64,000 nucleotides of DNA from Bacteroidota bacterium. Its GTDB lineage: Bacteria; Bacteroidota; Bacteroidia; CAILMK01. The position numbers and the translations under genes are program-made. The notes beneath the pieces are model-generated. The model was not told the origin of the DNA. It did no database searches and saw only the letters and a program-made list of their open reading frames with translations. The stretch spans positions 344-64,343 of the forward strand of contig JAWXCF010000038.1 of NCBI GenBank assembly GCA_034440515.1, given 5' to 3'. The number at the start of each line of letters is the position of its first letter. Position 1 is the stretch's first letter. Of this stretch, positions 33,109 through 46,352 are shown one piece after another.

Positions 33109-34380
33109 GTGAGTAAAATACAAGACATAAAAAACAAATTTGAGATAGTGGGTAACCATCCTTCTTTAATAAATGCATTAGAAATAGCCGTAAAAGTTGC
33201 ACCGACAGACATCACTGCCCTAATATTAGGTGAAAGCGGCGTGGGTAAAGAAGCTATAAGTAAGATAATACATAGCTTAAGTAAGCGTAAACACAATAAT
33301 TTTATTGCCATAAACTGTGGCGCAATACCAGCCGGTACCATAGATTCAGAATTATTCGGTCACGAGAAGGGTTCATTTACCAGTGCAGTTGACTCTAGAA
33401 AGGGATATTTTGAAACGGTAGATGGAGGTACTATTTTCCTAGACGAAGTCGGAGAAATGCCCCTAGAAACGCAAAGTAGACTACTAAGAGTATTAGAATC
33501 AGGTGAATTTATAAAAGTAGGTAGCAGCAAGGTCCAAAAAACAAATGTGCGAGTTATTGCAGCCACAAATAGAGACCTATTAAGCTATGCCAGAGAGGGG
33601 AAATTTAGAGAAGACTTGTACTATAGGCTTAGTACAGTAACAATTAAAATGCCCCCGCTACGTGACAGAGCTACAGATATACCAATGCTATTTGCGCGAT
33701 TCGTTTCAGACATTTCAGACAAATACAGCATTCCTCCAATTGAAATAACACACGAAGCAATGGAACAAATGCAAATGTTCCCTTGGCCAGGTAACATCAG
33801 GCAATTAAGAAACTTTGTTGAGCAAATTTGTATATTAGAGGCAGACAGACTACTAGAGGCAGATACTGTTATAAAATATTTACCAGATTTACCTAAAGAC
33901 AAATATCCTAAAGGTTCAGTATTGCCAGCAGTATTGCCTCAACAAACTGATTTCACTAATGAACGTGAAATTATGTATCAATACCTGTCAGACATTAAGT
34001 CTCAGTTGAATAACATTCAGACTATGCTAATTAATTTAGCAGGGGTTAATTTTCAAGGCTTCAATGCAAATCCAATAATGCCCCTACACAACCCTAACAA
34101 GTTGCTAATGACAGGTAATACAGAGGAGAATAGCAACATTAACCCTCAAATCATTTATGCTAAATCTAACAGAAGGCAAGATGACTACGTTAATAATACT
34201 GACGAAGATGAATTTATTCAAAAACCAATAGGGAACGTAGTTAGCCTGCAAGACCACGAACGTGAATTGATAAAAAAATCTCTTACTAAGCACCAAGGGA
34301 AAAGAAAGCTAGCTGCCAAAGAACTAGGCATTAGCGAACGTACCCTATATCGGAAAATAAAAGAGTATGACTTACAATAA
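33109..34380 (+). CDS. Sigma-54-dependent transcriptional activator (AAA+ EBP) lacking an N-terminal sensor/receiver domain
   Basis: 423 aa beginning directly with the sigma-54 interaction domain (Walker A GESGVGKE, ESELFGHEKGSFTSA, RVIAATNRDL). A Q/N-rich linker follows, then a C-terminal Fis-type HTH (KRKLAAKELGISERTLYRKIKEY). The start codon is GTG at 33109, with TAA immediately upstream in frame. Confidence 0.85.
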   Translation: MSKIQDIKNKFEIVGNHPSLINALEIAVKVAPTDITALILGESGVGKEAISKIIHSLSKRKHNNFIAINCGAIPAGTIDSELFGHEKGSFTSAVDSRKGYFETVDGGTIFLDEVGEMPLETQSRLLRVLESGEFIKVGSSKVQKTNVRVIAATNRDLLSYAREGKFREDLYYRLSTVTIKMPPLRDRATDIPMLFARFVSDISDKYSIPPIEITHEAMEQMQMFPWPGNIRQLRNFVEQICILEADRLLEADTVIKYLPDLPKDKYPKGSVLPAVLPQQTDFTNEREIMYQYLSDIKSQLNNIQTMLINLAGVNFQGFNANPIMPLHNPNKLLMTGNTEENSNINPQIIYAKSNRRQDDYVNNTDEDEFIQKPIGNVVSLQDHERELIKKSLTKHQGKRKLAAKELGISERTLYRKIKEYDLQ

Positions 34381-34900
34381 ACCCTTAGTTTTAGCCAGTT
34401 TCTACATTGCTGTACTTTTCATTATCGCTTTTAGTTTTAGTGCTTGCTCTACTTGCGGCTATAGTTTGAAAGGGGGTAGTTTAGATCCGGCTGCTGAAAA
34501 ACTTAAGGTAGATTTCTTTAATAACAGGGCAAGTCAAGTAAACCCAACGCTGAGTCAAATATTTACAGAAAAATTAAAAGACAAGTACTTAAGGGAAACT
34601 AGATTAAAACTAAACGTTGACGACCCTGATGTTTATTTAAGCGGTTATATAAGCAGTTATACCGTTGCACCAGTAGGTGTAGGTTCTAATGGTCAAGCAC
34701 AATCATCACGATTAACTATTGTAGTTCACGTGAAATATATGAGTAAACAAAACCCTAAATCTAACTTTGAGTCAGACATTACACAATTTACTGATTTCAA
34801 TGCAACTCAAAGTTTTTCTGCTGTTGAGGCAACCTTGGTAGATGATATTTGTAATAAACTAGTACAAGATATATTTAATAAGACAATTTTGGATTGGTAA
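34367..34900 (+). CDS. LptE-like lipoprotein (LPS-assembly lipoprotein family), hypothetical assignment
   Basis: 177 aa with a lipoprotein signal (…IIAFSFSAC). Its size and position (translationally overlapping the sigma-54 activator by 14 nt) match the Bacteroidetes LptE-like gene. This is weak sequence-only evidence. Confidence 0.45.
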   Translation: MTYNKPLVLASFYIAVLFIIAFSFSACSTCGYSLKGGSLDPAAEKLKVDFFNNRASQVNPTLSQIFTEKLKDKYLRETRLKLNVDDPDVYLSGYISSYTVAPVGVGSNGQAQSSRLTIVVHVKYMSKQNPKSNFESDITQFTDFNATQSFSAVEATLVDDICNKLVQDIFNKTILDW

Positions 34901-34904
34901 CAAT

Positions 34905-36299
34905 ATGAATACACAAAGACTACATCAGCTCATTTCCTCGCCTATGTTGTTGGAAATTAACACAGACCTACCCTATCTACAGCAATTGACTCAAGATTAT
35001 CCCTATTTTAATACAGGGCACAGTCTAATGGCAAAGTTGTTATATGATCAAAAAAATATTAAGTCTTCAGATTACGTTAAAAAAGCATCACTGTACTCCG
35101 GTGACAGAAGTGTTTTATATAATTTAATACAAACTTTAGAAATGGTAGAAGATGAAATCTTGGTTGACTTGCCAGAAATAGAACAACCTGCTGAGCCAGA
35201 AATAGAACAAGAACCTGCACCTACTATTCAGCCATTAATTCCTGAAATTCAACCTTTGGAACCAAACGAGAACCCTGAAATAGCGCCTAATCAACCTATA
35301 GAACCAGACACTTGGCAGGAACCTTCTACACAACCTCAAACAGAACCCAATCAACAACCTAGTCCTTTCCCATTTGGTGAGACAATACCAAATTTTAACC
35401 TTGATGAAATACTACTAGGATCTGGTGTAGAAACTGAAGAGGAAATAGTAAAAGAGGAACTAATAGAAGAATTAATACCCATTGAAGTAAATGAGTCTGG
35501 TAAAAAAGAGGAAGAAGCAGATGATAAAGGCAATAAACCAACTGAGCCACCACAAGATCCTGTAAACCCAGAAACAATACCAGAGCCAGAGCACCAGCAC
35601 AATCCTATGCTGCAACCTAGCGATGATGAAGAAGAAATAGATACCGTAAAAAATCAAGAAGTAAATAGAAACGAGGATGATTTATTAGCGCCAGAAGTAA
35701 ATGAACCTGTAAATACTTTTAACCAGAGACTGCTACCAATTGCTAGCTTTGACTACTTCGCTTTTCTAGATAAATCTGGAATGAAATTAAACAATAATGT
35801 TGATACTAAAATATACAAAGTAGGTAACCTGAATAAACAAGAAATTAAATTAGACTTCTACTCTTGGTTACAACTTACCCAAACCAAAAAAGAATGGGAA
35901 ACTTTACCCTCTGAAACACCACCAGAAAAAGGTAGTGGCGATAAGGAACAAAAGCCAAACTTAGAAAAAACACCAGATGCTCCACCAGCTCCTCATAAGG
36001 AAAACCAAAACGAAGAGGAAAAATCGTTCGATGCAAATGATATCCTAAATCATTTTATAGCTACAACTCCTAGAATTAGCCAAACCAAAAGAGCCATATA
36101 TAAAGCTGAAGATAAGGCTAGGGAAAGCGATAGAGAAGATACAAGCCTAGCAACTGAAACATTAGCAGAAATATACCTAAACCAAGGTATGCACGCAAAA
36201 GCAATAGAAATTTATGAAAAATTAAGCTTGCGATATCCAAATAAAAGCAGTTACTTTGAAGGTTTAATCGCTCAGATTAAAGATAAGACTTCAGTTTAA
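34905..36299 (+). CDS. Acidic Pro/Glu/Gln-rich protein with C-terminal TPR-like helix pair (hypothetical)
   Basis: 464 aa. The central 200 aa are low-complexity (PEIEQPAEPEIEQEPAPTIQPLIPEIQPLEPNENPEI…). The C-terminus reads …LAEIYLNQGMHAKAIEIYEKLSLRYPNKSSYFEGL…, which is TPR-like. Confidence 0.6.
   Translation: MNTQRLHQLISSPMLLEINTDLPYLQQLTQDYPYFNTGHSLMAKLLYDQKNIKSSDYVKKASLYSGDRSVLYNLIQTLEMVEDEILVDLPEIEQPAEPEIEQEPAPTIQPLIPEIQPLEPNENPEIAPNQPIEPDTWQEPSTQPQTEPNQQPSPFPFGETIPNFNLDEILLGSGVETEEEIVKEELIEELIPIEVNESGKKEEEADDKGNKPTEPPQDPVNPETIPEPEHQHNPMLQPSDDEEEIDTVKNQEVNRNEDDLLAPEVNEPVNTFNQRLLPIASFDYFAFLDKSGMKLNNNVDTKIYKVGNLNKQEIKLDFYSWLQLTQTKKEWETLPSETPPEKGSGDKEQKPNLEKTPDAPPAPHKENQNEEEKSFDANDILNHFIATTPRISQTKRAIYKAEDKARESDREDTSLATETLAEIYLNQGMHAKAIEIYEKLSLRYPNKSSYFEGLIAQIKDKTSV
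35171..35210 (+). repeat. Short tandem direct repeat inside the Pro/Glu-rich ORF
   Basis: GCCAGAAATAGAACAA occurs at 35171 and again at 35195 (period 24 nt), encoding PEIEQ…PEIEQ. Confidence 0.6.
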
Positions 36300-36677
36300 A
36301 TGTTCTACTTATTATTAGTTATTTTAATCATTGCCTGCATACTGCTGGTATTTATAATTTTAGCTCAAAATCCTAAAGGTGGTGGATTATCATCAATGGG
36401 TTCAGGGGCCTCAAATCTATTAGGTGCACGTCAAGCTGCTGACTTTTTAGAAAAAATGACTTGGTATTTCGGTATTGGGATAATCGTTGCAGTGGTGGGT
36501 ACTTACTTTTTAGGTGGTGGCAGCACTACGGCTACAGCTGAGGGTGAAAAAGGCCCAGCTAAAACTTTTAAAGTAAGAGAAAACAATGGCTATATGCCAT
36601 CTGGTATTAATACCAAAACACCTACTACACAACCTGCACCTGGTCAAACTGCACCTCAATCAGAGCCTGCTAAATAA
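36300..36677 (+). CDS. secG: Preprotein translocase subunit SecG
   Basis: 125 aa with an N-terminal TM helix followed by LAQNPKGGGLSSMGSG, the SecG signature (QxxKGxGL). A second TM helix follows. Confidence 0.85.
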   Translation: MFYLLLVILIIACILLVFIILAQNPKGGGLSSMGSGASNLLGARQAADFLEKMTWYFGIGIIVAVVGTYFLGGGSTTATAEGEKGPAKTFKVRENNGYMPSGINTKTPTTQPAPGQTAPQSEPAK

Positions 36678-36702
36678 TAATATTAATTAACTACAAATTA
36701 TG

Positions 36703-36733
36703 AAAGCCCAAGACTTTGTCTTGGGCTTTTTTT
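36703..36733 (+). terminator. Rho-independent terminator after secG
   Basis: AAAGCCCAAGAC-ttt-GTCTTGGGCTTT is a perfect 12-bp stem followed by T7. Confidence 0.75.
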
Positions 36734-36886
36734 ATGCGCCATTAGTCTGCCAATTTTTCACTTCATTTCACGCATTTATGACAAATGAATTGACTAATCG
36801 GGTAAAAAAGAAAGCCAAATTTTCAATGGCATAATCTGTGATTATTGCCAATTGAAAACATTAACACATAATTTTTTACATAGCAA

Positions 36887-37177
36887 ATGAGTATTAACCT
36901 AAAGCCACTGGCTGACAGAGTATTAATTAAACCTGCAGCGGCAGAAGAAACAACTAAATCAGGTATCATCATTCCAGATACTGCGAAAGAAAAACCTATG
37001 CAAGGGGAGGTAATAGCAGCTGGCAATGGTAAAGTAGCAGAAGATGGTAAAGTATCTCCTCTTACTGTAAAAGTTGGTGACAGAGTATTGTATGGTAAAT
37101 ATGCTGGCACAGAAATGAATTTCGAAGGAGAAGACTACCTAATTATGCGTGAGTCTGACATTTTCGGCATTATCTAG
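36887..37177 (+). CDS. groES: Co-chaperonin GroES
   Basis: 96 aa, [37 protein letters not shown]…, a canonical GroES. Confidence 0.96.
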
Positions 37178-37239
37178 TCTAGTACGCTTAAGCGACCCAA
37201 AATCAATCACAACAATTTTTCACTTAACATTTCAAATAA

Positions 37240-38886
<1,647 letters not shown>

Positions 38887-38915
38887 TCATTACTGATTAA
38901 TCCGTTATATTACAA

Positions 38916-38952
38916 CCCGGTAGAGAGAAATTTCTATCGGGTTTTTTATTTT
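38916..38952 (+). terminator. Rho-independent terminator after groEL
   Basis: CCCGGTAGA…TCTATCGGG is a 9-bp stem with one G·U. It is followed by TTTTTTATTTT. Confidence 0.65.
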
Positions 38953-39215
38953 GTAAAATTTTAAATTCATTCCCAAGATATTTGAAAGTAGCTGATTTCA
39001 ACTTAAAATTAATTTTGTTGATTCTAAATACTTGAAGTTATCGTAAATAGTGGGACAGAAATGCTAAATTTTACATACATAAATTCTCAATTTCAAAATC
39101 AAAGCCTAAGAAAGGCAACTAACGAAAATGATATCTATATCAACTTACTTTGCATCAACTTTACTCGTTTACAATTAATAGTCAATCATACCACAGCTTG
39201 AATATATTTCTATTA

Positions 39216-39776
39216 ATGAATTTAAGTAATACTCAAAAATATTTGGGGTGTTTGGTGGTCATTTGTATTTTATTTACCTCGTGCAACAGGTATAAAATGC
39301 AATCATCTAATTCATATAGAAACTATGCTGGTTCACAATTGGTGATTCAAAAAATAGATTCAAATAGAGTACATCAAAGTGTTGAAAATCAAACATACTC
39401 AACATATCAGCTAAAAATAAATAAACCTAATAAGCCAATTTCACCCAAACTAATTACGAGTAAGTTTACCAAACAAATAGATAAAGTTAATGTGCTTCAA
39501 GCTTATATACCAAATGTTGAAGTTAAAAAAATTGAGAAAGAACCGAAATCTTGGTTATACTATTGTGGAGCTAGTATTATATTGTACGTTTTGTCAATTT
39601 TAGTTCAAATTATTTCTTTCAGTACTTTTGCCTTAGTAATAGGTTTATTATTATCACTCGCTAGCACTGCATTTTGCATAGTAGGAATTGTTCACCTGTC
39701 TAAAGTTAATAAAAATCCTAATAAAAAGAAAGAAATAGAAAGAGATAAGAAACGTGAAGACATAGATATTTATTAA
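39216..39776 (+). CDS. Paralog family member A: lipoprotein-signal protein with C-terminal two-TM hairpin and charged tail (hypothetical)
   Basis: The ATG at 39216 gives the signal MNLSNTQKYLGCLVVICILFTSC (lipobox FTSC). It has the conserved motif GSQLVIQKIDSN, a K/N/T-rich variable middle and two hydrophobic helices (ASIILYVLSILVQIISF / ALVIGLLLSLASTAFCIVGIVHL). The tail is KKKEIERDKKREDIDIY. Confidence 0.6.
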   Translation: MNLSNTQKYLGCLVVICILFTSCNRYKMQSSNSYRNYAGSQLVIQKIDSNRVHQSVENQTYSTYQLKINKPNKPISPKLITSKFTKQIDKVNVLQAYIPNVEVKKIEKEPKSWLYYCGASIILYVLSILVQIISFSTFALVIGLLLSLASTAFCIVGIVHLSKVNKNPNKKKEIERDKKREDIDIY

Positions 39777-39785
39777 TATTAATTT

Positions 39786-40376
39786 ATGAATTCAAACCCA
39801 CCAATTATGATAAAATCATACTTAAAATATCCTTACTTACTCGTTTGCTTTGCATTTATGCTTGCTTTATTTTCATCGTGTAATAGGTATAAAATGCAGC
39901 CTACAGGTTCATCTAAAAACTATGTTGGCTCACAATTGGTGATTCAAAAAATAGATTCGAATAGTGCAGCTCAAATTGTTGAAATACAATCAAGCACAAC
40001 ATCTCATCAAAAAGTAAACACTCCGAATAACATAATACGCCATCAAAGAATTGCGGCCAAGTTTACCAAAAAAATGAGTAAGGTAGATGGCATTGATGTA
40101 ATTATGCCGAAAGTTGTTTTAAAGAAAAATCGGAATGAGCCAAAATCTTGGATATTTTATTGTGGTGGTAGTACTGTTTTGTTATTTTTAGCTTCGGTGA
40201 TTCAATCTACATTTTTTAATGTTCCCGTTTTGGTTTTTTTGTCCGTAATAATATACCTAATAAGTATTGCATTTTGTATTATCGGCATCGTTCATTTAGG
40301 AAACCCTAGTAGATATTCAACCAAAAAGAAAGAAATAGAAAAAGATAAGAAACGTGAAGACATTGACATTTATTAA
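39786..40376 (+). CDS. Paralog family member B (same architecture as A)
   Basis: The lipobox LFSSC is followed by NRYKMQ…GSQLVIQKIDSN. The C-terminal two-TM hairpin is followed by KKKEIEKDKKREDIDIY. The nucleotide termini are near-identical to paralog A. Confidence 0.6.
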   Translation: MNSNPPIMIKSYLKYPYLLVCFAFMLALFSSCNRYKMQPTGSSKNYVGSQLVIQKIDSNSAAQIVEIQSSTTSHQKVNTPNNIIRHQRIAAKFTKKMSKVDGIDVIMPKVVLKKNRNEPKSWIFYCGGSTVLLFLASVIQSTFFNVPVLVFLSVIIYLISIAFCIIGIVHLGNPSRYSTKKKEIEKDKKREDIDIY

Positions 40377-40405
40377 TATTGGATTTTTGAAATCAAATTC
40401 AAAAA

Positions 40406-41023
40406 ATGTCAAAATCAAGGGTAAAGAATGTCGTTCTATTTGTAGGCATATCAATGATGTTCGTTATACTATCTTCTTGCAATATGTCACATCAACATAT
40501 TGTGGCTAATAAGTCTTATGTAAATTCTCAGTTAGTAATTTGTAAACGCTCGCCTAGTATTACTATTAGTACTATAGTGGTATCGTAGAATGTAACTAGA
40601 GAAGATAATAAATATGTTAGGCACAACCAAAAGCAACTCCTAAAAAAAACAAAGCAGAAGGCTATTACTGTTACACAGTTTGTTGCAAGACAAATGGCTA
40701 TTACAAAACTTAATAATCATACATCAAGCATTACGATTAATGACAATTCTGCAATTAAATTTATTATATTAGCGCTGCTTATTTATTTATGCTATTAGGG
40801 AAAACAACAAATTCTAACACAATAGTTTATAAAATCTAAGCACAAACATAGCCTAGTGAAAGCCAACTTTGTTAAATATTTTGTTGCACCCAAACTACAT
40901 AATTACATCGCTAATAAACAGATTAATGCGAATCCGTCTACTGGTGATTATGGCAGCAGTAATATTAAAAAGTTAGAATCAATTAGAGACAAAGAACAAG
41001 GACAGGAAATACCAGTAGATTAA
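40406..41023 (+). pseudogene. Frameshifted/degraded paralog of the same family
   Basis: A 60-aa N-terminal ORF (signal + ILSSC + …SYVNSQLVICK) terminates early. Downstream, other frames encode a TM-like remnant (…SSITINDNSAIKFIILALLIYLCY) and the charged tail KKLESIRDKEQGQEIPVD* ending at TAA 41021-41023. Confidence 0.5.
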
Positions 41024-41064
41024 TTGCATTAGCAGTAAAGAATTATAGTATTATCTAGTTTGAT

Positions 41065-41703
41065 TTGTCCACTTATTATCTAAATTCGAATTTAAACCCA
41101 CAATGTGTGACAGTTTCTAAATTAAAATACTACTTGTTCCTGAGTTTAATATTAATACTTGGGGTTTTTTCTTCTTGCAAAACGTCACAACATATTGAAG
41201 CTAAAAAATCTTACATAAATTCAAAGTTAGTTATTAGCAATCCTACACCAACTAATGTCCAAAATGATGTGGTGGTTAGGGAATATGTATCTATTGTAGG
41301 GAAAAAGTGTAAAGAGCCTAACCCATTAAAAAAGCTAGAAAGAACTAAACAGAGTATTAATTCAGCCAAACACAATGCAGGAAAATGCTTTAAAAAACCA
41401 CAGTTACCCACATATACTGCTAGTAAAAAACTTAATAGAAATCCATCATCTCCTACTTATATTACTGCAATAATATTTCTAGTATTTGCCATTGCTAGTT
41501 TTATAATATCAGCTAGCTTAGATTTTGATTTTGTTGCTTCAATTGCTTTTGTAGTTATTGGTATCTGTTTGCTTCTCATATCTGGTGTAATATTATTAGC
41601 AGGTATCATTTTAGATTTAACTTATATATCTGACAGTAAAAAACAGAAAAAAATTGACTTACAAAAAGAAAGCGAACAAGATAATGAAATACCAAGAGAC
41701 TAA
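41065..41703 (+). CDS. Paralog family member C
   Basis: Non-ATG start (TTG at 41065, or GTG at 41107 giving the signal TVSKLKYYLFLSLILILGVFSSC). It has the motifs …KKSYINSKLVISN… and a C-terminal two-TM hairpin. The tail KKIDLQKESEQDNEIPRD parallels the pseudogene tail. Confidence 0.55.
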   Translation: MSTYYLNSNLNPQCVTVSKLKYYLFLSLILILGVFSSCKTSQHIEAKKSYINSKLVISNPTPTNVQNDVVVREYVSIVGKKCKEPNPLKKLERTKQSINSAKHNAGKCFKKPQLPTYTASKKLNRNPSSPTYITAIIFLVFAIASFIISASLDFDFVASIAFVVIGICLLLISGVILLAGIILDLTYISDSKKQKKIDLQKESEQDNEIPRD

Positions 41704-41757
41704 ATAAATTTAGAAGTTGGGCAATTTGTGACTTGATTTATATGATTTATGCTTTAA

Positions 41758-42402
41758 AACCTAAATGTAAGTTCTTACAAAAAATATAAGACTAAATCAA
41801 AAATAAAATATTATTACATACACATTATCACAATATTGACGTTTAGTTTATTGTCAACTTGCAGTAAGTCAAATCAACAATCTATTGCAAATAATTCAAA
41901 TGTAAATTCTCAAATAGTAATTATCAACATTGTACCTACCATTGCCTTTAATCCAATGGATGTTCAGAGAAATTTAATTTAAATCCGATTGATATAAGGA
42001 GCCGATTCCATTAGAAAAACTGAAAAAAATCGAGGCAAAAACCTAAAGTAGCTAAATACAAATTAGTTAAGCAACTAAATATTCCGCAAATGCATACTTG
42101 TATAACACAAAAAAAAGTATAGAAATCGCTCAAGGGGTTTCTACATTGCTGTAGGAATTTTAAATGCAACTGCAATATCTTGTTTTATTGTATCCGTATT
42201 TGCACAAAATGACCAACTTTCATTTGTTTCTGTTATGGTAGGTTTTTCCTTATTAATTCTCTCTGCACCATCATTTATTATTGCTGTAATTGTAGATATA
42301 ATCTACCAATCACAAAATAAAGAAAAGAAGACAAAGCTTAATAAGCAAAAAGAGAAAAAACCAGAAATGGTGATAAAGAAAATCAATTTTCAAAAACTAT
42401 AA
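41758..42402 (+). pseudogene. Degraded paralog: N-terminal remnant (41758-41982) and C-terminal remnant (42106-42402) separated by disrupted middle
   Basis: The N-terminal remnant has no ATG and reads …ITILTFSLLSTCSKSNQQSIANNSNVNSQIVIINIVPT…* (signal + lipobox + SQIVI motif). The C-terminal remnant reads …GFYIAVGILNATAISCFIVSVF…MVGFSLLILSAPSFIIAVIVDIIYQSQNKEKKTKLNKQKEKKPEMVIKKINFQKL* (two-TM hairpin + charged tail). Confidence 0.45.
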
Positions 42403-42539
42403 CAAAATCAGCATATACTTATTTAACCTTTACAAACAAAATATTATGTTTTACAAACATTTAGCACAGAGTTAATTATTGATAGCTAGATGAAACTAAA
42501 TTTGTAGCAGTCACAATTAAGATTTACTTAATTAAAGCA

Positions 42540-43151
42540 ATGAAATATAATAGAATTTTACCCATCATTAGTTCTATAGCCATAATTTTCCTATTTACGG
42601 CTTGTAGTAAAACTAACTATTATAGCAACCAAGTATTGGTACCTGCTTCACAGTTGCTAATTCACACTCAAACCGAATATCAGGATAAGATTAATGAGAA
42701 AACGGTTTTTATTATAACTGAAGCAGCTCCTATTAAAAAAAGCAATGTTTGTAAAACTGAAATAAAAAGGAAACAAGTTCGCCAAGCAAAATTAGTAGCA
42801 CAAAAAAAGATAATTCGACAAAAATTAGCTAAATCTAGTATGTATTTACCTAAATTAATTACTTATAAATCTAACACTGCAGGTAAAGCTCCCTGGTGGT
42901 TTAATATATTAACCTTACTTACTGTAGCTGTATTTATATTTGGAATAGCTGTCACATTTGAATATAATATTCCTGGTTATGAACTAACCATTCAAGAGGG
43001 ACTTAAAGTAATGGTATTAGGTTTAATTCTAATAGCTATTATGCTATTAATATATGTAGCAAGTTATGCTAAGTCTGACAGGGCAAAATATCAAGATGAA
43101 TATATGCCACAAAACAATAACCAACAGCAACAAAAAGACTATATGAAATAG
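42540..43151 (+). CDS. Paralog family member D (divergent)
   Basis: The signal MKYNRILPIISSIAIIFLFTAC (lipobox FTAC) is followed by …ASQLLIHTQ… and a K-rich middle. Two TM helices (WWFNILTLLTVAVFIFGIAV / VMVLGLILIAIMLLIYVASYA) precede the polar tail …NNNQQQQKDYMK. Confidence 0.55.
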   Translation: MKYNRILPIISSIAIIFLFTACSKTNYYSNQVLVPASQLLIHTQTEYQDKINEKTVFIITEAAPIKKSNVCKTEIKRKQVRQAKLVAQKKIIRQKLAKSSMYLPKLITYKSNTAGKAPWWFNILTLLTVAVFIFGIAVTFEYNIPGYELTIQEGLKVMVLGLILIAIMLLIYVASYAKSDRAKYQDEYMPQNNNQQQQKDYMK

Positions 43152-43152
43152 T

Positions 43153-44322
43153 CTATTTCTCTGGATAAATCAGGTATTTTAGTCTAATTTTTTTGTATTT
43201 GTATATTCCAAGTTGCCAAGACTCGCGAATTTGCTTTGCATCTTTACCGGCTATAATCATTTGTCTAATACTAGCCGTGCCTGCTAATTTGTCAAAGAAT
43301 GAATTAAAAAATGCATCCTTTTTAACATCATTTTTATAAAAACCAATTAAAAAGTCTAGATACAATTGATTGTTGAACCTAATAAATTGCATTGCAAAAT
43401 CTTTGAGCAAGAAACCATTGCATTCAACATTAAGGTAAGGTGGATTCTCTGCCCTACCCTTTATAACTCTAGGGGTAAAGCTATAATTTCCTGCAGCGAA
43501 TTTCGGTACACCAATACATTCAAAGGCTTGATCAGTACCTCTACCCACACTTACATTAGTTCCTTCAAATAGGCAAAGACTCGGGTATAGATATACAGAT
43601 TCTAAGCTTCTAAGGTTTGGTGATGGTGGTATGGGACTATTATAAGCCATACTGTGATTATAGCCTGTACAAGGAATTACGATTAATTTACATTGCTTTT
43701 TCTTATCTAGCCATTTCTCTCCATTTATCATTTTTGCCATTTCTGCTAGGGTGCATCCATATACTATAGGTATCGGGTGTAAGCCTACGAAACTCTTATA
43801 TTTAGACTCAAGTATAGGCCCATCTATATAGAATGCATTAGGGTTTGGTCTATCTAGCAACAATAGTGGTTTTTTATTATCAGCACAGGCCTGCATTACA
43901 TAGTGTAGGGTACTTAAATAGGTATAGAATCTAGTACCTACATCCTGCACATCAAATACTAGAATATCTATCTTAGCCATATCCTGAACTGTAGGCATAT
44001 AGTTTTTACCATATAAACTCACTATTTCTACACCTGTTGCCTTATCTACAGTTGAATTAATGTGTGCCCCAGCTTCTGCATCGCCACGAAATCCGTGTTC
44101 TGGTGCAAATATTTTCACGATATTTATCCCCAATCTACTTAATGTATCTACGAGGTGCATATCTCCAATCATACTGGTTTGGTTTACTACTACCCCTACC
44201 CGCTTACCTTGCAATGTGTTGATATACTTATCTATCTGTTCATCGCCTAGCTTTAATTGTCCAAGTGCTATTGTTGATGAAATTAGAAATAAGCATAGAA
44301 TGAAGTATTTAAAATGAAGCAT
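43153..44322 (-). CDS. DUF1343 / NamZ-like exo-N-acetylmuramidase family protein, secreted
   Basis: The ORF track begins at a TTG (44337). The ATG at 44320-44322 gives the signal MLHFKYFILCLFLISSTIALGQ. About 390 aa, with an LLLDRPNPN-containing core remembered as characteristic of DUF1343. Confidence 0.5.
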   Translation of the reverse strand: MLHFKYFILCLFLISSTIALGQLKLGDEQIDKYINTLQGKRVGVVVNQTSMIGDMHLVDTLSRLGINIVKIFAPEHGFRGDAEAGAHINSTVDKATGVEIVSLYGKNYMPTVQDMAKIDILVFDVQDVGTRFYTYLSTLHYVMQACADNKKPLLLLDRPNPNAFYIDGPILESKYKSFVGLHPIPIVYGCTLAEMAKMINGEKWLDKKKQCKLIVIPCTGYNHSMAYNSPIPPSPNLRSLESVYLYPSLCLFEGTNVSVGRGTDQAFECIGVPKFAAGNYSFTPRVIKGRAENPPYLNVECNGFLLKDFAMQFIRFNNQLYLDFLIGFYKNDVKKDAFFNSFFDKLAGTASIRQMIIAGKDAKQIRESWQLGIYKYKKIRLKYLIYPEK

Positions 44323-44422
44323 AAATGATAACGACAAATAATAAGATGCAATAATATTACAGAATGGGTGTCACATTGCCGTAAAAGTCAATAATATTGC
44401 CAAGGTGAATATGGGACTTTTT

Positions 44423-45637
44423 ATGGCCAACCGACTTTCTAATAAAAAGGGAGGGGTATTTACTAAAGTAATAACTCGAATATCTGTTTGGGCCATTGCT
44501 TTAAGTACCGCAACCATCATTATTACAATAAGTATGATATTGGGTTTTCAGCAACAAATTAAAGATAAAGTTTCCGCATTTTCTGGTCACATTCAAATTA
44601 GCCCCTACAATAGGGAAAACCAATCTGAGACAAACCCATTAGTATATAGTGACAGTCTGGTAAATAACATTGTAGCACTGCCTCCCATTAGTCACGTTCA
44701 AGCATTTGCCAATGTACCTGCATTATTACGCTATAATAGTGTGAGTGAGGGTGTGGTGTTGAAAGCTGTTGATGCTCACTATAAATGGTCTGGCTTTGCA
44801 ACATATCTAATGTCTGGTAAACTGCCAGACTCTGGGAGTTTGGGTAAAGGCATAGTGATTAGCCAACTATTGGCCGATAAAATGCAGTTAAAAATAAAAG
44901 ATACCCTTTTAGCTTACATAATAGATACAGATGGTGGTAAGAAACATAAATTAAGGCAATACCACGTAACTGCGACCTTTACAACAGGGTTAGATGAGTT
45001 TGATAAAGCTGTAGCACTAATAGATATGGTTGAGGTGAAACGACTAAAACCAAACTGGATAGATGGACAAATTTCTGGTTTGGAGGTATTCACAAACAAA
45101 TTTAATGAAATAGATACAAGCACCTACCAAATAGCCGAATTACCCGACCTAGATAAGGAATTAGATATATTGACTATTCAAGACAGAATGCCCCAAATAT
45201 TTGATTGGCTATCTCTCCTTAATATTCATATTAAGATTATCATCATATTAATGGGAACCGTTGCCATCATAAATATGGTAACTGCCCTAATTATTATGAT
45301 ATTAGAGCGAAACGCTATGATTGGTCTGCTGAAAACCTTGGGGATGAAAAACAAAGCCCTAATGCAAATATTTTTAATAAGTGCCAGCAGATTAATCATT
45401 AAGGGACTGATAATTGGTAATTTGCTCGCCATTGGCCTACTGGCTATGCAATACTATACTCATATAATTAAGCTAGATGCTGAGCAATACTATTTAAGTG
45501 AGGCCCCAGTTTCATTCCCTTGGTTGTATATGGTGCTAATTAATGTTGGAGTACTACTAGTATGTAGTATTTCTATGTTAGTACCATCACTATTGGTACT
45601 GAAAACAAAACCTGCGGCCGCATTAAAAAGCTTTTAA
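44423..45637 (+). CDS. ABC-transporter permease, FtsX/LolC/LolE-like (lipoprotein-releasing system type)
   Basis: About 404 aa. It has an N-terminal TM, a large periplasmic domain and three C-terminal TM helices (FtsX fold). The ATG at 44423 gives MANRLSNKKGGVFTKVITRISVWAI…. The ORF track begins at a GTG at 44405. Confidence 0.75.
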   Translation: MANRLSNKKGGVFTKVITRISVWAIALSTATIIITISMILGFQQQIKDKVSAFSGHIQISPYNRENQSETNPLVYSDSLVNNIVALPPISHVQAFANVPALLRYNSVSEGVVLKAVDAHYKWSGFATYLMSGKLPDSGSLGKGIVISQLLADKMQLKIKDTLLAYIIDTDGGKKHKLRQYHVTATFTTGLDEFDKAVALIDMVEVKRLKPNWIDGQISGLEVFTNKFNEIDTSTYQIAELPDLDKELDILTIQDRMPQIFDWLSLLNIHIKIIIILMGTVAIINMVTALIIMILERNAMIGLLKTLGMKNKALMQIFLISASRLIIKGLIIGNLLAIGLLAMQYYTHIIKLDAEQYYLSEAPVSFPWLYMVLINVGVLLVCSISMLVPSLLVLKTKPAAALKSF

Positions 45638-45698
45638 TTAATTGATTTAATTACCTTTGAGAAAAAGAACTTTTCATCATCAGTAATTATTTCTTGAG

Positions 45699-46352
45699 AT
45701 GATAATATTAGATTCGAATATAGTAAACGTTAGACCAGACAAAGTCTATAAAATATTGAGCGGTACCAAAGATATTTTTTTTGAATTAGGTATTCGCTCA
45801 ATGTCAATGGAATTAATTGCCAAAAAACTGGGAATCTCTAAAAAAACACTGTATTCCATTGTGCGCAATAAGAAAGACCTAGTAACTAAAGTTATGGTCT
45901 TTACTTTAGATCAAATAAAGTCTACCGTAATTAATCTGACTTCAACTAATGAAAATGCAATTGAAGAAATGCTATCAATTTTTAAATTTAATGAGAAGAT
46001 TAGCAGTCAAATAAATTCAAACCTTTTACAAGAATTAGAGAAATATTTCCCTGACAGCTATGAAGTTTTAATAAATTTTAGAAAAAATTTCCTTTGCCCA
46101 GTGCTTATAGATAATATTAAAAAAGGAATTTCGCAAAACTTATATCAAGCTGACGTAAAGCCAGATTTAGTTATTCAATTTTATATGAGCTATAGTTTAA
46201 AACTATATGAAAAGCAGGATTACATATTAAAATATACACCAGTTCAAATAGCCAAGTCTATGTTTTGCTACCATATTAAAGGATTGTCTAATACAAATGG
46301 ACTAAAATACTTAACAGAAAAAATAAGCGAAGACACTTTCGTAGTAGTATAA
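45699..46352 (+). CDS. TetR/AcrR-family transcriptional regulator
   Basis: 217 aa with an N-terminal HTH (…FFELGIRSMSMELIAKKLGISKKTLYSIVRNKKDL…). Confidence 0.75.
   Translation: MIILDSNIVNVRPDKVYKILSGTKDIFFELGIRSMSMELIAKKLGISKKTLYSIVRNKKDLVTKVMVFTLDQIKSTVINLTSTNENAIEEMLSIFKFNEKISSQINSNLLQELEKYFPDSYEVLINFRKNFLCPVLIDNIKKGISQNLYQADVKPDLVIQFYMSYSLKLYEKQDYILKYTPVQIAKSMFCYHIKGLSNTNGLKYLTEKISEDTFVVV

Follow-up and report, generated by a model that had tools for sequence, protein, structure and literature searches.

What are the tandemly repeated genes that follow groEL in the genome of a member of the Bacteroidota (assembly GCA_034440515.1)? We analyzed a 64-kb window of this genome (64,000 nucleotides of contig JAWXCF010000038.1, positions 344 to 64,343; all coordinates below count from the first nucleotide of the window) and found six co-oriented tandem copies of a small gene between the groEL terminator and a convergent NamZ gene (39216–43151, + strand). 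Four copies are intact (A, B, C, and D) and two are pseudogenes (P1 and P2). A first-pass annotation of the same DNA had described at least four intact and at least two degraded co-oriented paralogs, and our count agrees with it. Each intact copy encodes, in the same order, a lipobox, an SQLVI-like motif, a basic linker, a two-helix hydrophobic hairpin, and a charged tail. The array is best filed as a lineage-restricted case of familiar tandem, fast-evolving envelope-protein paralogs, with an unusual and puzzling architecture. The explanation we favor, and to which we give about an even chance, is that these are small, nonenzymatic envelope proteins restricted to their lineage, which arose by tandem duplication at a synteny breakpoint past groEL, turn over by birth and death with partial gene conversion, and are held in the envelope by a lipid anchor plus an inner-membrane hairpin.

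How complete are the individual copies? Copy A (39216–39776, +) encodes 186 amino acids (aa), with the lipobox LFTSC, its cysteine at residue 23 (Cys23), and the motif GSQLVIQKIDSN; an 88-aa linker of net charge +10 leads to a hairpin at about residues 112–165, formed by helices 112–133 and 137–165, and then to a charged tail of ~20 aa (KKKEIERDKKREDIDIY). Copy B (39807–40376, +) encodes 189 aa, or 196 aa from an alternative start at 39786; its lipobox is LFSSC, its N-terminal motif and tail are as in A, and the two proteins are 50% identical. Copy C (41107–41703, +; 198 aa) starts with GTG; its lipobox is VFSSC and its motif NSKLVIS, the linker has a net charge of +14, the hairpin loop is acidic (DFDF), and the tail is charged. 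A TTG at 41065 is an alternative start for C, and an independent gene call (P0004) matches the 198-aa length. Copy D (42540–43151, +; 203 aa) repeats the architecture of A–C: its lipobox is LFTAC and its motif ASQLLIH, the linker (net charge +14) includes a predicted basic helix (residues 78–97), the acidic hairpin loop is 16 aa long, and the tail is Q/N-rich. The two pseudogenes belong to the subfamily of C, and each keeps one reading frame, broken by in-frame nonsense codons only. P1 (40406–41023, +) retains an intact lipobox (ILSSC), a decayed hairpin, and a C-like tail, and it carries three internal stops, all of them TAG (at 40586, 40796, and 40823). P2 (about 41836–42402, +, with similarity beginning near 41794) has six internal stops and a degenerate lipobox (LSTC); its hairpin and K-rich tail are still recognizable in a 55-aa open reading frame (ORF; 42235–42402). 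The premature stops of P2 are a mixture of TAA and TAG, and the other ORFs of the window end mostly in TAA (36 of 46, with TAG in 7). The all-TAG pattern of P1 is probably chance, produced by AAG or CAG changing to TAG in K/Q-rich sequence.

Do the six copies form a single family, as the first-pass annotation had proposed? Within-window tblastn connected A with B (E = 5.5e-54), C with P2 (1.4e-14) and with P1 (6e-11), and B with P2 (2.5e-7). On these alignments A, B, C, P1, and P2 are paralogous, far beyond chance, and the same searches divide the array into three subfamilies: A/B; P1/C/P2, tied to A/B with E values between 1e-5 and 1e-7; and D alone. The repeat spacing is 597–600 base pairs (bp) from A to B and 687–695 bp from P1 through C to P2. 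For D, within-window tblastn gave no link to any other copy, and hhalign against a profile of A, B, and C returned a probability of 1.6%, which is not significant. The claim of one paralog family thus holds for five of the copies, with the homology of D undetectable by these means; we infer its membership from architecture, short shared motifs, and position.

How widespread is the family? Searches of Pfam, NCBIfam, PHROGs, and PADLOC produced no match above threshold, and the sub-threshold ones fell on the hydrophobic hairpin only. A profile search of PDB returned designed or generic transmembrane (TM) hairpins only, and a Foldseek search of PDB with the low-confidence model of copy A returned nothing at E ≤ 0.001. 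The inability of the first-pass annotation to place these proteins in a known family was therefore shared by profile and structure searches. A word-indexed search of 5.8 billion clusters gave self-matches only, joined by one protein (P0008) once another (P0006) had entered the profile. An exhaustive HMMER search of 1.84 billion representatives recovered the array's own copies, P0006 (E = 1e-4), and a marginal match, P0007 (E = 6e-4). P0006 and P0008 are soil-metagenome proteins of the same architecture, encoded as a tandem pair on contig L085; they have the lipoboxes LITSC and LSTSC, an SQKMI motif, the LP motif, and the hairpin, and they have no tail. A profile of the window copies that includes D aligned with this soil pair at an hhalign probability of 95% (E = 3e-8, 132 columns); D alone reached 3.5%, with only the AK...LP motif aligning. 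P0007 (89 aa, a two-helix hairpin with a K/E-rich tail) has no lipobox or linker and was treated as a compositional match and not as a family member; one source names it “bacteriorhodopsin,” evidently a mis-annotation. Four scans of viral contigs found no relatives, and scans of metagenome DNA with A and B and with the soil pair found contig L085 again and nothing else. According to these searches, the family is undescribed in every resource consulted and is seen in one near-clonal population and one soil lineage. The first-pass annotation had called the array an undescribed system: it belongs to no named family and has almost no relatives, as that phrase implies, and no partner gene lies beside it in the 64-kb window, which leaves the word “system” unsupported.

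The contigs of the second, soil-derived organism are at most 3.6 kb long, and the genes neighboring its paralogs have no Pfam match. Each soil paralog is followed by a GC-richer repeat of ~250 bp (L085 635–886 and ~2030–2284; L086 1130–1381), in which an ORF ending in ...RESPDLYFWSSAKFYETGEDEFGILTHYL has no Pfam match. The repeat may be what is left of a mobile or REP-associated element through which the duplication came about.

Which features do the copies share? Our criterion for a lipoprotein was the PROSITE pattern PS00013 with the Cys at position 15–35 and a lysine or arginine (K/R) in the n-region. The pattern is matched by A, B, C, D, P1, P0006, and P0008, all with the Cys at position 22–25, and P2 (STC) does not match it; in copy A the first K is at position 8, outside the first seven residues. 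Counted over both organisms, eight of nine copies match. The lipobox Cys is one of four invariant columns in an alignment of six proteins that share 16–51% identity, with divergence elsewhere in the signal region, so the lipobox reported by the first-pass annotation stands. The hydrophobic stretch of the signal region is 14–18 aa long, and the n-region carries K/R. About 15 residues past the Cys lies the first motif, in the form GSQLVIQ, NSKLVIS, ASQLLIH, NSQLVIC, or NSQIVII. The linker, measured from the Cys to the first helix, spans 88–94 aa, with an isoelectric point of ~10, 14–17% Lys, and a net charge of +10 to +14; it contains two Cys in C and one in D. A second motif, AK...(Y/M)x(L/I)P, sits at the linker end, ~13 residues ahead of the first helix. 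The two hydrophobic helices of the hairpin make up ~50 aa, and the short loop between them, neutral in copies A and B, is acidic in C, D, and P2. The conserved motif, two-helix hairpin, and charged tail that the first-pass annotation had listed are all present. This architecture is rare: in other Bacteroidota DNA totaling 1.4 Mb, a lipobox is present in 86 ORFs, of which two qualified (mature part of at most 300 aa with at least 38 hydrophobic residues), and both were unrelated polytopic fragments.

Public gene models tell part of this story differently. The NCBI entry SGJ04_03615 starts copy A at Met28 (159 aa), and in one Joint Genome Institute (JGI) call copy B begins at the corresponding Met (160 aa). 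These annotations leave out the signal peptide and lipobox, and the lipoprotein feature is therefore hidden in the database versions of A and B.

Is the linker a folded domain? AlphaFold2 models of copies A and D, built on a six-sequence alignment, had a mean predicted local distance difference test (pLDDT) score of 55 and 52, respectively. Confidence was limited to the signal helix, the hairpin, and the tail helix, and no strands were predicted in this low-confidence secondary structure. The hairpin scored 72–81 in two independent runs and the linker 29–46; because pLDDT is low there, the modeled linker is probably unstructured. What the first-pass annotation had taken for a periplasmic domain of ~130 aa is thus a polycationic stretch of 88–94 aa that AlphaFold2 leaves unfolded.

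How are the copies evolving? We calculated the ratio of nonsynonymous to synonymous divergence (dN/dS) for each segment by the Nei-Gojobori method. Between A and B the ratio is 0.34 overall; the N-terminal motif has 0.23, the linker 0.67, the hairpin 0.13, and the tail 0.07. For the second organism's pair the values are 0.50 (overall), 0.75 (linker), and 0.38 (hairpin). The low ratios in the hairpin and tail of A and B imply functional genes, and these codon comparisons indicate real genes whose membrane parts are under purifying selection and whose linker is weakly constrained. In none of the segments does the ratio pass 1, which points to relaxed constraint combined with turnover and conversion, and adaptive diversification is not demonstrated. 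The description “rapidly diversifying” in the first-pass annotation consequently fails in its adaptive sense, high divergence alone having been found. Synonymous divergence between A and B is mosaic, differing between the conserved blocks and the signal and hairpin regions (Fisher p = 0.002), and in the second organism's pair it differs between the 5' part and the hairpin (p = 2e-6). Such mosaics suggest partial gene conversion between neighboring copies. Together, the sequence data indicate birth-and-death turnover with partial gene conversion.

Where in the cell envelope would these proteins sit? Under the explanation we favor, Sec would export the precursor, and the lipoprotein pathway would lipid-modify it and cleave it at the Cys; the conserved lipobox, the 14–18-aa hydrophobic stretch, and the K/R in the n-region speak for a substrate of signal peptidase II. 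The very hydrophobic hairpin would remain in the inner membrane. Because it appears too hydrophobic to leave, anchoring at both ends is the simplest model, with a flexible, basic part of the mature protein serving as a periplasmic tether. Were the lipid end sorted to the outer membrane, the topology would be that of the phage unimolecular spanins (u-spanins), and the SQLVI-like and AK...LP motifs would be docking sites for conserved envelope partners. Such a protein could act as a structural tether, a shield, or an exclusion factor. Several observations weigh against this explanation. The hairpin is flanked by K/R-rich segments (3–5 such residues before it and 3–7 after it) and its loop is K/R-poor (none in A–C and one in D), a pattern for which the positive-inside rule places linker and tail in the cytoplasm. 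The first 90 residues after the Cys have a net charge of +8 to +14, compared with −3.1 ± 4.5 and a maximum of +9 for 86 lipoproteins predicted in Bacteroidota. By hhalign, D cannot be shown statistically to be homologous to the other copies, and the link to the soil pair falls to 57% (E = 1e-4) when D is left out of the profile. Finally, the AlphaFold2 alignments held only six sequences, and the apparent disorder of the linker may partly reflect this shallow input.

The distribution of charge around the hairpin and the strongly basic mature part keep a serious, if rather unlikely, rival in play: a three-pass inner-membrane protein, with an uncleaved N-out TM helix in place of a signal peptide, a cytoplasmic linker and tail, an unused lipobox, and only the hairpin loop in the periplasm. 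Its basic linker could bind nucleic acid or anionic lipid at the inner-membrane face. The positive-inside rule fits this topology (16–19 K/R in the linker, 4–8 in the tail, and 0–1 in the hairpin loop), as does a post-Cys charge that reaches beyond the range of the reference lipoproteins; in A and B, moreover, the charge is already +2 within five residues of the Cys, which occurs in 1% of those lipoproteins. However, the Cys is kept, together with the small residues at −1 and −2, at 14–25% identity and in the second organism, the hydrophobic stretch is short for a TM helix and resembles a signal peptide with its K/R n-region, and an N-out orientation needs one to three N-terminal K/R moved across the membrane. 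In short, conservation of the lipobox favors cleavage, whereas the charges around the hairpin and after the Cys speak against it. Either topology would suit another possibility, which we consider doubtful—that the array is conflict-driven and its products are exclusion or immunity factors in an arms race with phages or with membrane-targeting toxins or bacteriocins. Tandem paralogs with pseudogenes, 14–50% identity, AT-richness, and a position at a synteny breakpoint fit such a history; tandem duplication recurs in the second organism; and the linker dN/dS of 0.67–0.75 is the highest of any sizeable segment. Yet dN/dS is nowhere above 1, the array has no PADLOC or PHROG match and no relatives on viral contigs, and four near-identical assemblies show no turnover of copy number or alleles. 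Nor did we find a phage, transposase, recombinase, toxin, Rhs or contact-dependent inhibition (Rhs/CDI), type VI secretion system (T6SS), or other secretion-system gene near the array in the 64-kb window. A toxin-adjacent immunity array or acquired defense island was rejected, with no toxin, Rhs/CDI, T6SS, or recombinase nearby and no PADLOC match.

A lipoprotein signal combined with a C-terminal membrane anchor is also the design of u-spanins, two TM helices with a highly charged C-terminal tail are holin-like, and the peptidoglycan hydrolase NamZ adjoins the array, which together raise the idea of a prophage lysis-cassette remnant. We disfavor this idea as barely credible: phage genes are absent from the neighborhood, PHROG and viral-contig relatives are lacking, there are six copies and not one, and the best holin match in Pfam has E = 0.41. 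NamZ itself is a conserved exo-muramidase of cell-wall recycling; its gene is convergent with D and is missing from the locus of the second organism. It is nearly as hard to regard the genes as nonfunctional, decaying, or spurious ORFs in AT-rich junk DNA. Two of six copies are pseudogenes, GC content is low at all codon positions, and copy C has no ATG start; but the low dN/dS of hairpin (0.13) and tail (0.07) contradicts this reading, as does the retention of lipobox, motifs, and architecture at 14–25% identity and in the second organism. Four frames of 186–203 aa have, moreover, stayed open in K/N/Q-rich sequence in which stops are one mutation away. A bolder form of our favored dual-anchor explanation is, in our estimate, distinctly improbable: that the copies are nonphage cellular proteins anchored in both membranes, by the lipid end in the outer one and by the helical hairpin in the inner one, with a flexible polycationic tether between—a chromosomal counterpart of u-spanins. 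They would serve as variable trans-envelope tethers, or would exclude phages or membrane-active toxins, and would form an undescribed class of envelope protein in Bacteroidota.

What would follow from each topology? A dual anchor, if real, would make these proteins a rare cellular case of a tie between inner and outer membranes through a disordered polycationic linker, and a natural test of how Bacteroidota handle the sorting of a lipoprotein unable to leave the inner membrane. A three-pass topology, if true, would mean that a perfectly conserved lipobox can mislead. Uncultured bacteria have yielded very many orphan membrane-protein families, of which this is one, and its immediate value is modest.

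Could the copies instead be surface lipoproteins? In Bacteroidota, surface export is signaled by acidic residues at positions +2 to +6, of the type K-(D/E)2, Q-A-(D/E)2, or S-D-D (PMC5080379). The array sequences read NRYKM, NRYKM, KTSQH, SKTNY, and SLYRR at these positions, with D/E in no copy, as the first-pass annotation had said in describing basic residues after the Cys and no acidic export signal. Under the export-signal rule this absence argues against surface exposure, and we rejected a surface-exposed lipoprotein for that reason.

Which known proteins come closest? In design it is the u-spanins, whose prototype is gp11 of phage T1 and whose periplasm-spanning arrangement, in which a lipoprotein signal is paired with a C-terminal TM domain, has been experimentally validated (PMC6139136). 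Their families are extremely diverse, with many singletons; the periplasmic part is predicted to be β-rich, and none of 58 surveyed u-spanins has a periplasmic Cys (PMC6139136). The array copies share the N-terminal lipoprotein signal (by pattern only). Unlike u-spanins, they have two C-terminal helices and a charged tail instead of one TM domain, a linker of low-confidence or helical structure (with Cys in C and D) instead of a β-rich, Cys-free part, and a six-copy chromosomal setting among housekeeping genes instead of a phage lysis cassette; searches of PHROGs revealed no sequence similarity. SlyB, YfgH, OsmB, and YiaD are glycine-zipper 2TM outer-membrane lipoproteins with a lipobox and an α-helical hairpin (bioRxiv 10.64898/2025.12.22.696046), and the combination of lipobox and two-helix hairpin thus exists in Gram-negative envelopes. 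Their hairpin directly follows the lipid anchor, whereas that of the array is far more hydrophobic and lies C-terminal, past a 90-aa basic linker. GxxxG repeats number zero in A, B, C, D, and P2, and there is no match to a Pfam glycine zipper even at E ≤ 10; with the defining GxxxG zipper absent, a glycine-zipper lipoprotein was rejected.

Class II holins and pinholins resemble the array copies in their two TM helices, K-rich charged C-terminal tail, and flanks fitting an N-in/C-in hairpin. The copies differ in adding ~110 aa of lipobox and linker at the N terminus and in having no endolysin or phage context. The best holin family, Phage_holin_3_6, scored 11 bits against a cutoff of 28 (E = 0.41), no holin PHROG matched, and no endolysin is encoded nearby. 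Nor do the copies score as chlamydial Inc-type proteins, which have a bilobed hydrophobic domain: the CT214 family reached 21 bits against a cutoff of 90, with a match to the hairpin only. Tandem arrays of lineage-specific lipoproteins occur generally in Bacteroidota, spirochaetes, and mollicutes, where the products are normally anchored by lipid alone. The present array resembles them in its co-oriented, fast-diverging small genes, its pseudogenes, and its gene conversion, and it differs in the added hydrophobic hairpin and in being without phase-variation elements: we detected no strong inverted repeats, recombinase, or simple-sequence tracts at the array.

How does the array relate to its genomic surroundings? 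Guanine-cytosine (GC) content is 0.25–0.30 in the array and 0.35–0.41 in its flanks, in line with the higher AT-richness noted in the first-pass annotation. The deficit occurs at all codon positions, with 0.33–0.38 vs. 0.47 at the first and 0.19–0.26 vs. 0.282 ± 0.027 (38 other genes) at the third. The order of neighbors is MiaB, a sigma-54 activator, LptE, a tetratricopeptide repeat (TPR) protein, SecG, GroES, GroEL, the array, NamZ, a LolE-like permease, TetR, and an RND efflux pump; further upstream, ORF sizes and tRNAs suggest rpoB/rpoC-sized ORFs, an EF-Tu-sized ORF, and a tRNA cluster. We compared groEL neighborhoods across 80 Bacteroidota species among the matches listed, which do not include the window's own genome. 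The order LptE-TPR-(SecG)-GroES-GroEL (34367–38886) recurs in many of these relatives (e.g., L004, L005, L007, L010, and L011). The region 3' of groEL, in contrast, differs in all 80: none has NamZ or LolE downstream of groEL, and none has relatives of the array in this neighborhood. With the upstream order conserved and the downstream one never shared, the array lies at a synteny breakpoint. The best identity of GroEL to a species representative among the listed matches is 79%, which marks the host (NCBI locus tags SGJ04_03615–03635; proteins MDZ4839074–77) as an isolated lineage.

Do the copies vary among close relatives? Three further, independent assemblies from the same population (L001, L082, and L083) are ~99.9% identical to the window, with the same pseudogenes and no excess of single-nucleotide polymorphisms in the array. 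The turnover of copy number and sequence that the first-pass annotation had suggested looking for in related genomes did not appear in these near-identical strain contigs across the parts of the array they cover. All three contigs end inside the array (at 41771, 41991, and 40020, respectively), and contigs of 64.6 kb and 153.6 kb span it. These ends suggest assembly fragility of an AT-rich, repeated stretch or strain heterogeneity left unresolved in assembly.

The array is bounded upstream by the intrinsic terminator of groEL (38914–38953, +), a 13-pair stem followed by a T run; between 38800 and 43300 we found no other terminator-like site, inside the array or beyond it. Downstream lies the NamZ gene (43153–44337), convergent with D and identified by Pfam NamZ_N/NamZ_C. 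The stop codons of D and NamZ are 1 bp apart (43151–43153), with no terminator-like structure between them. A Bacteroidota-type −7 motif, TAnnTTTG, occurs at 39010–39017 (+), ~200 bp upstream of A, where it is a candidate promoter for A and B only, and again at 42497–42504 (+), 43 bp upstream of D, as a candidate separate promoter. The + strand of the 64-kb window holds 35 such motifs.

Two minor observations concern the genes upstream of groEL. An Rfam scan of 36000–46000 found no match in the array, and its sole sub-threshold match lies outside it, between secG and groES: VrrA (36662–36734, +), scoring 31 bits (E = 0.04) where the gathering score is 50, most likely chance. The 464-aa protein encoded between LptE and SecG, at 34905–36299, has a long low-complexity center rich in Pro, Glu, and Gln and only a weak TPR match at its C terminus; its C-terminal part is conserved in relatives.

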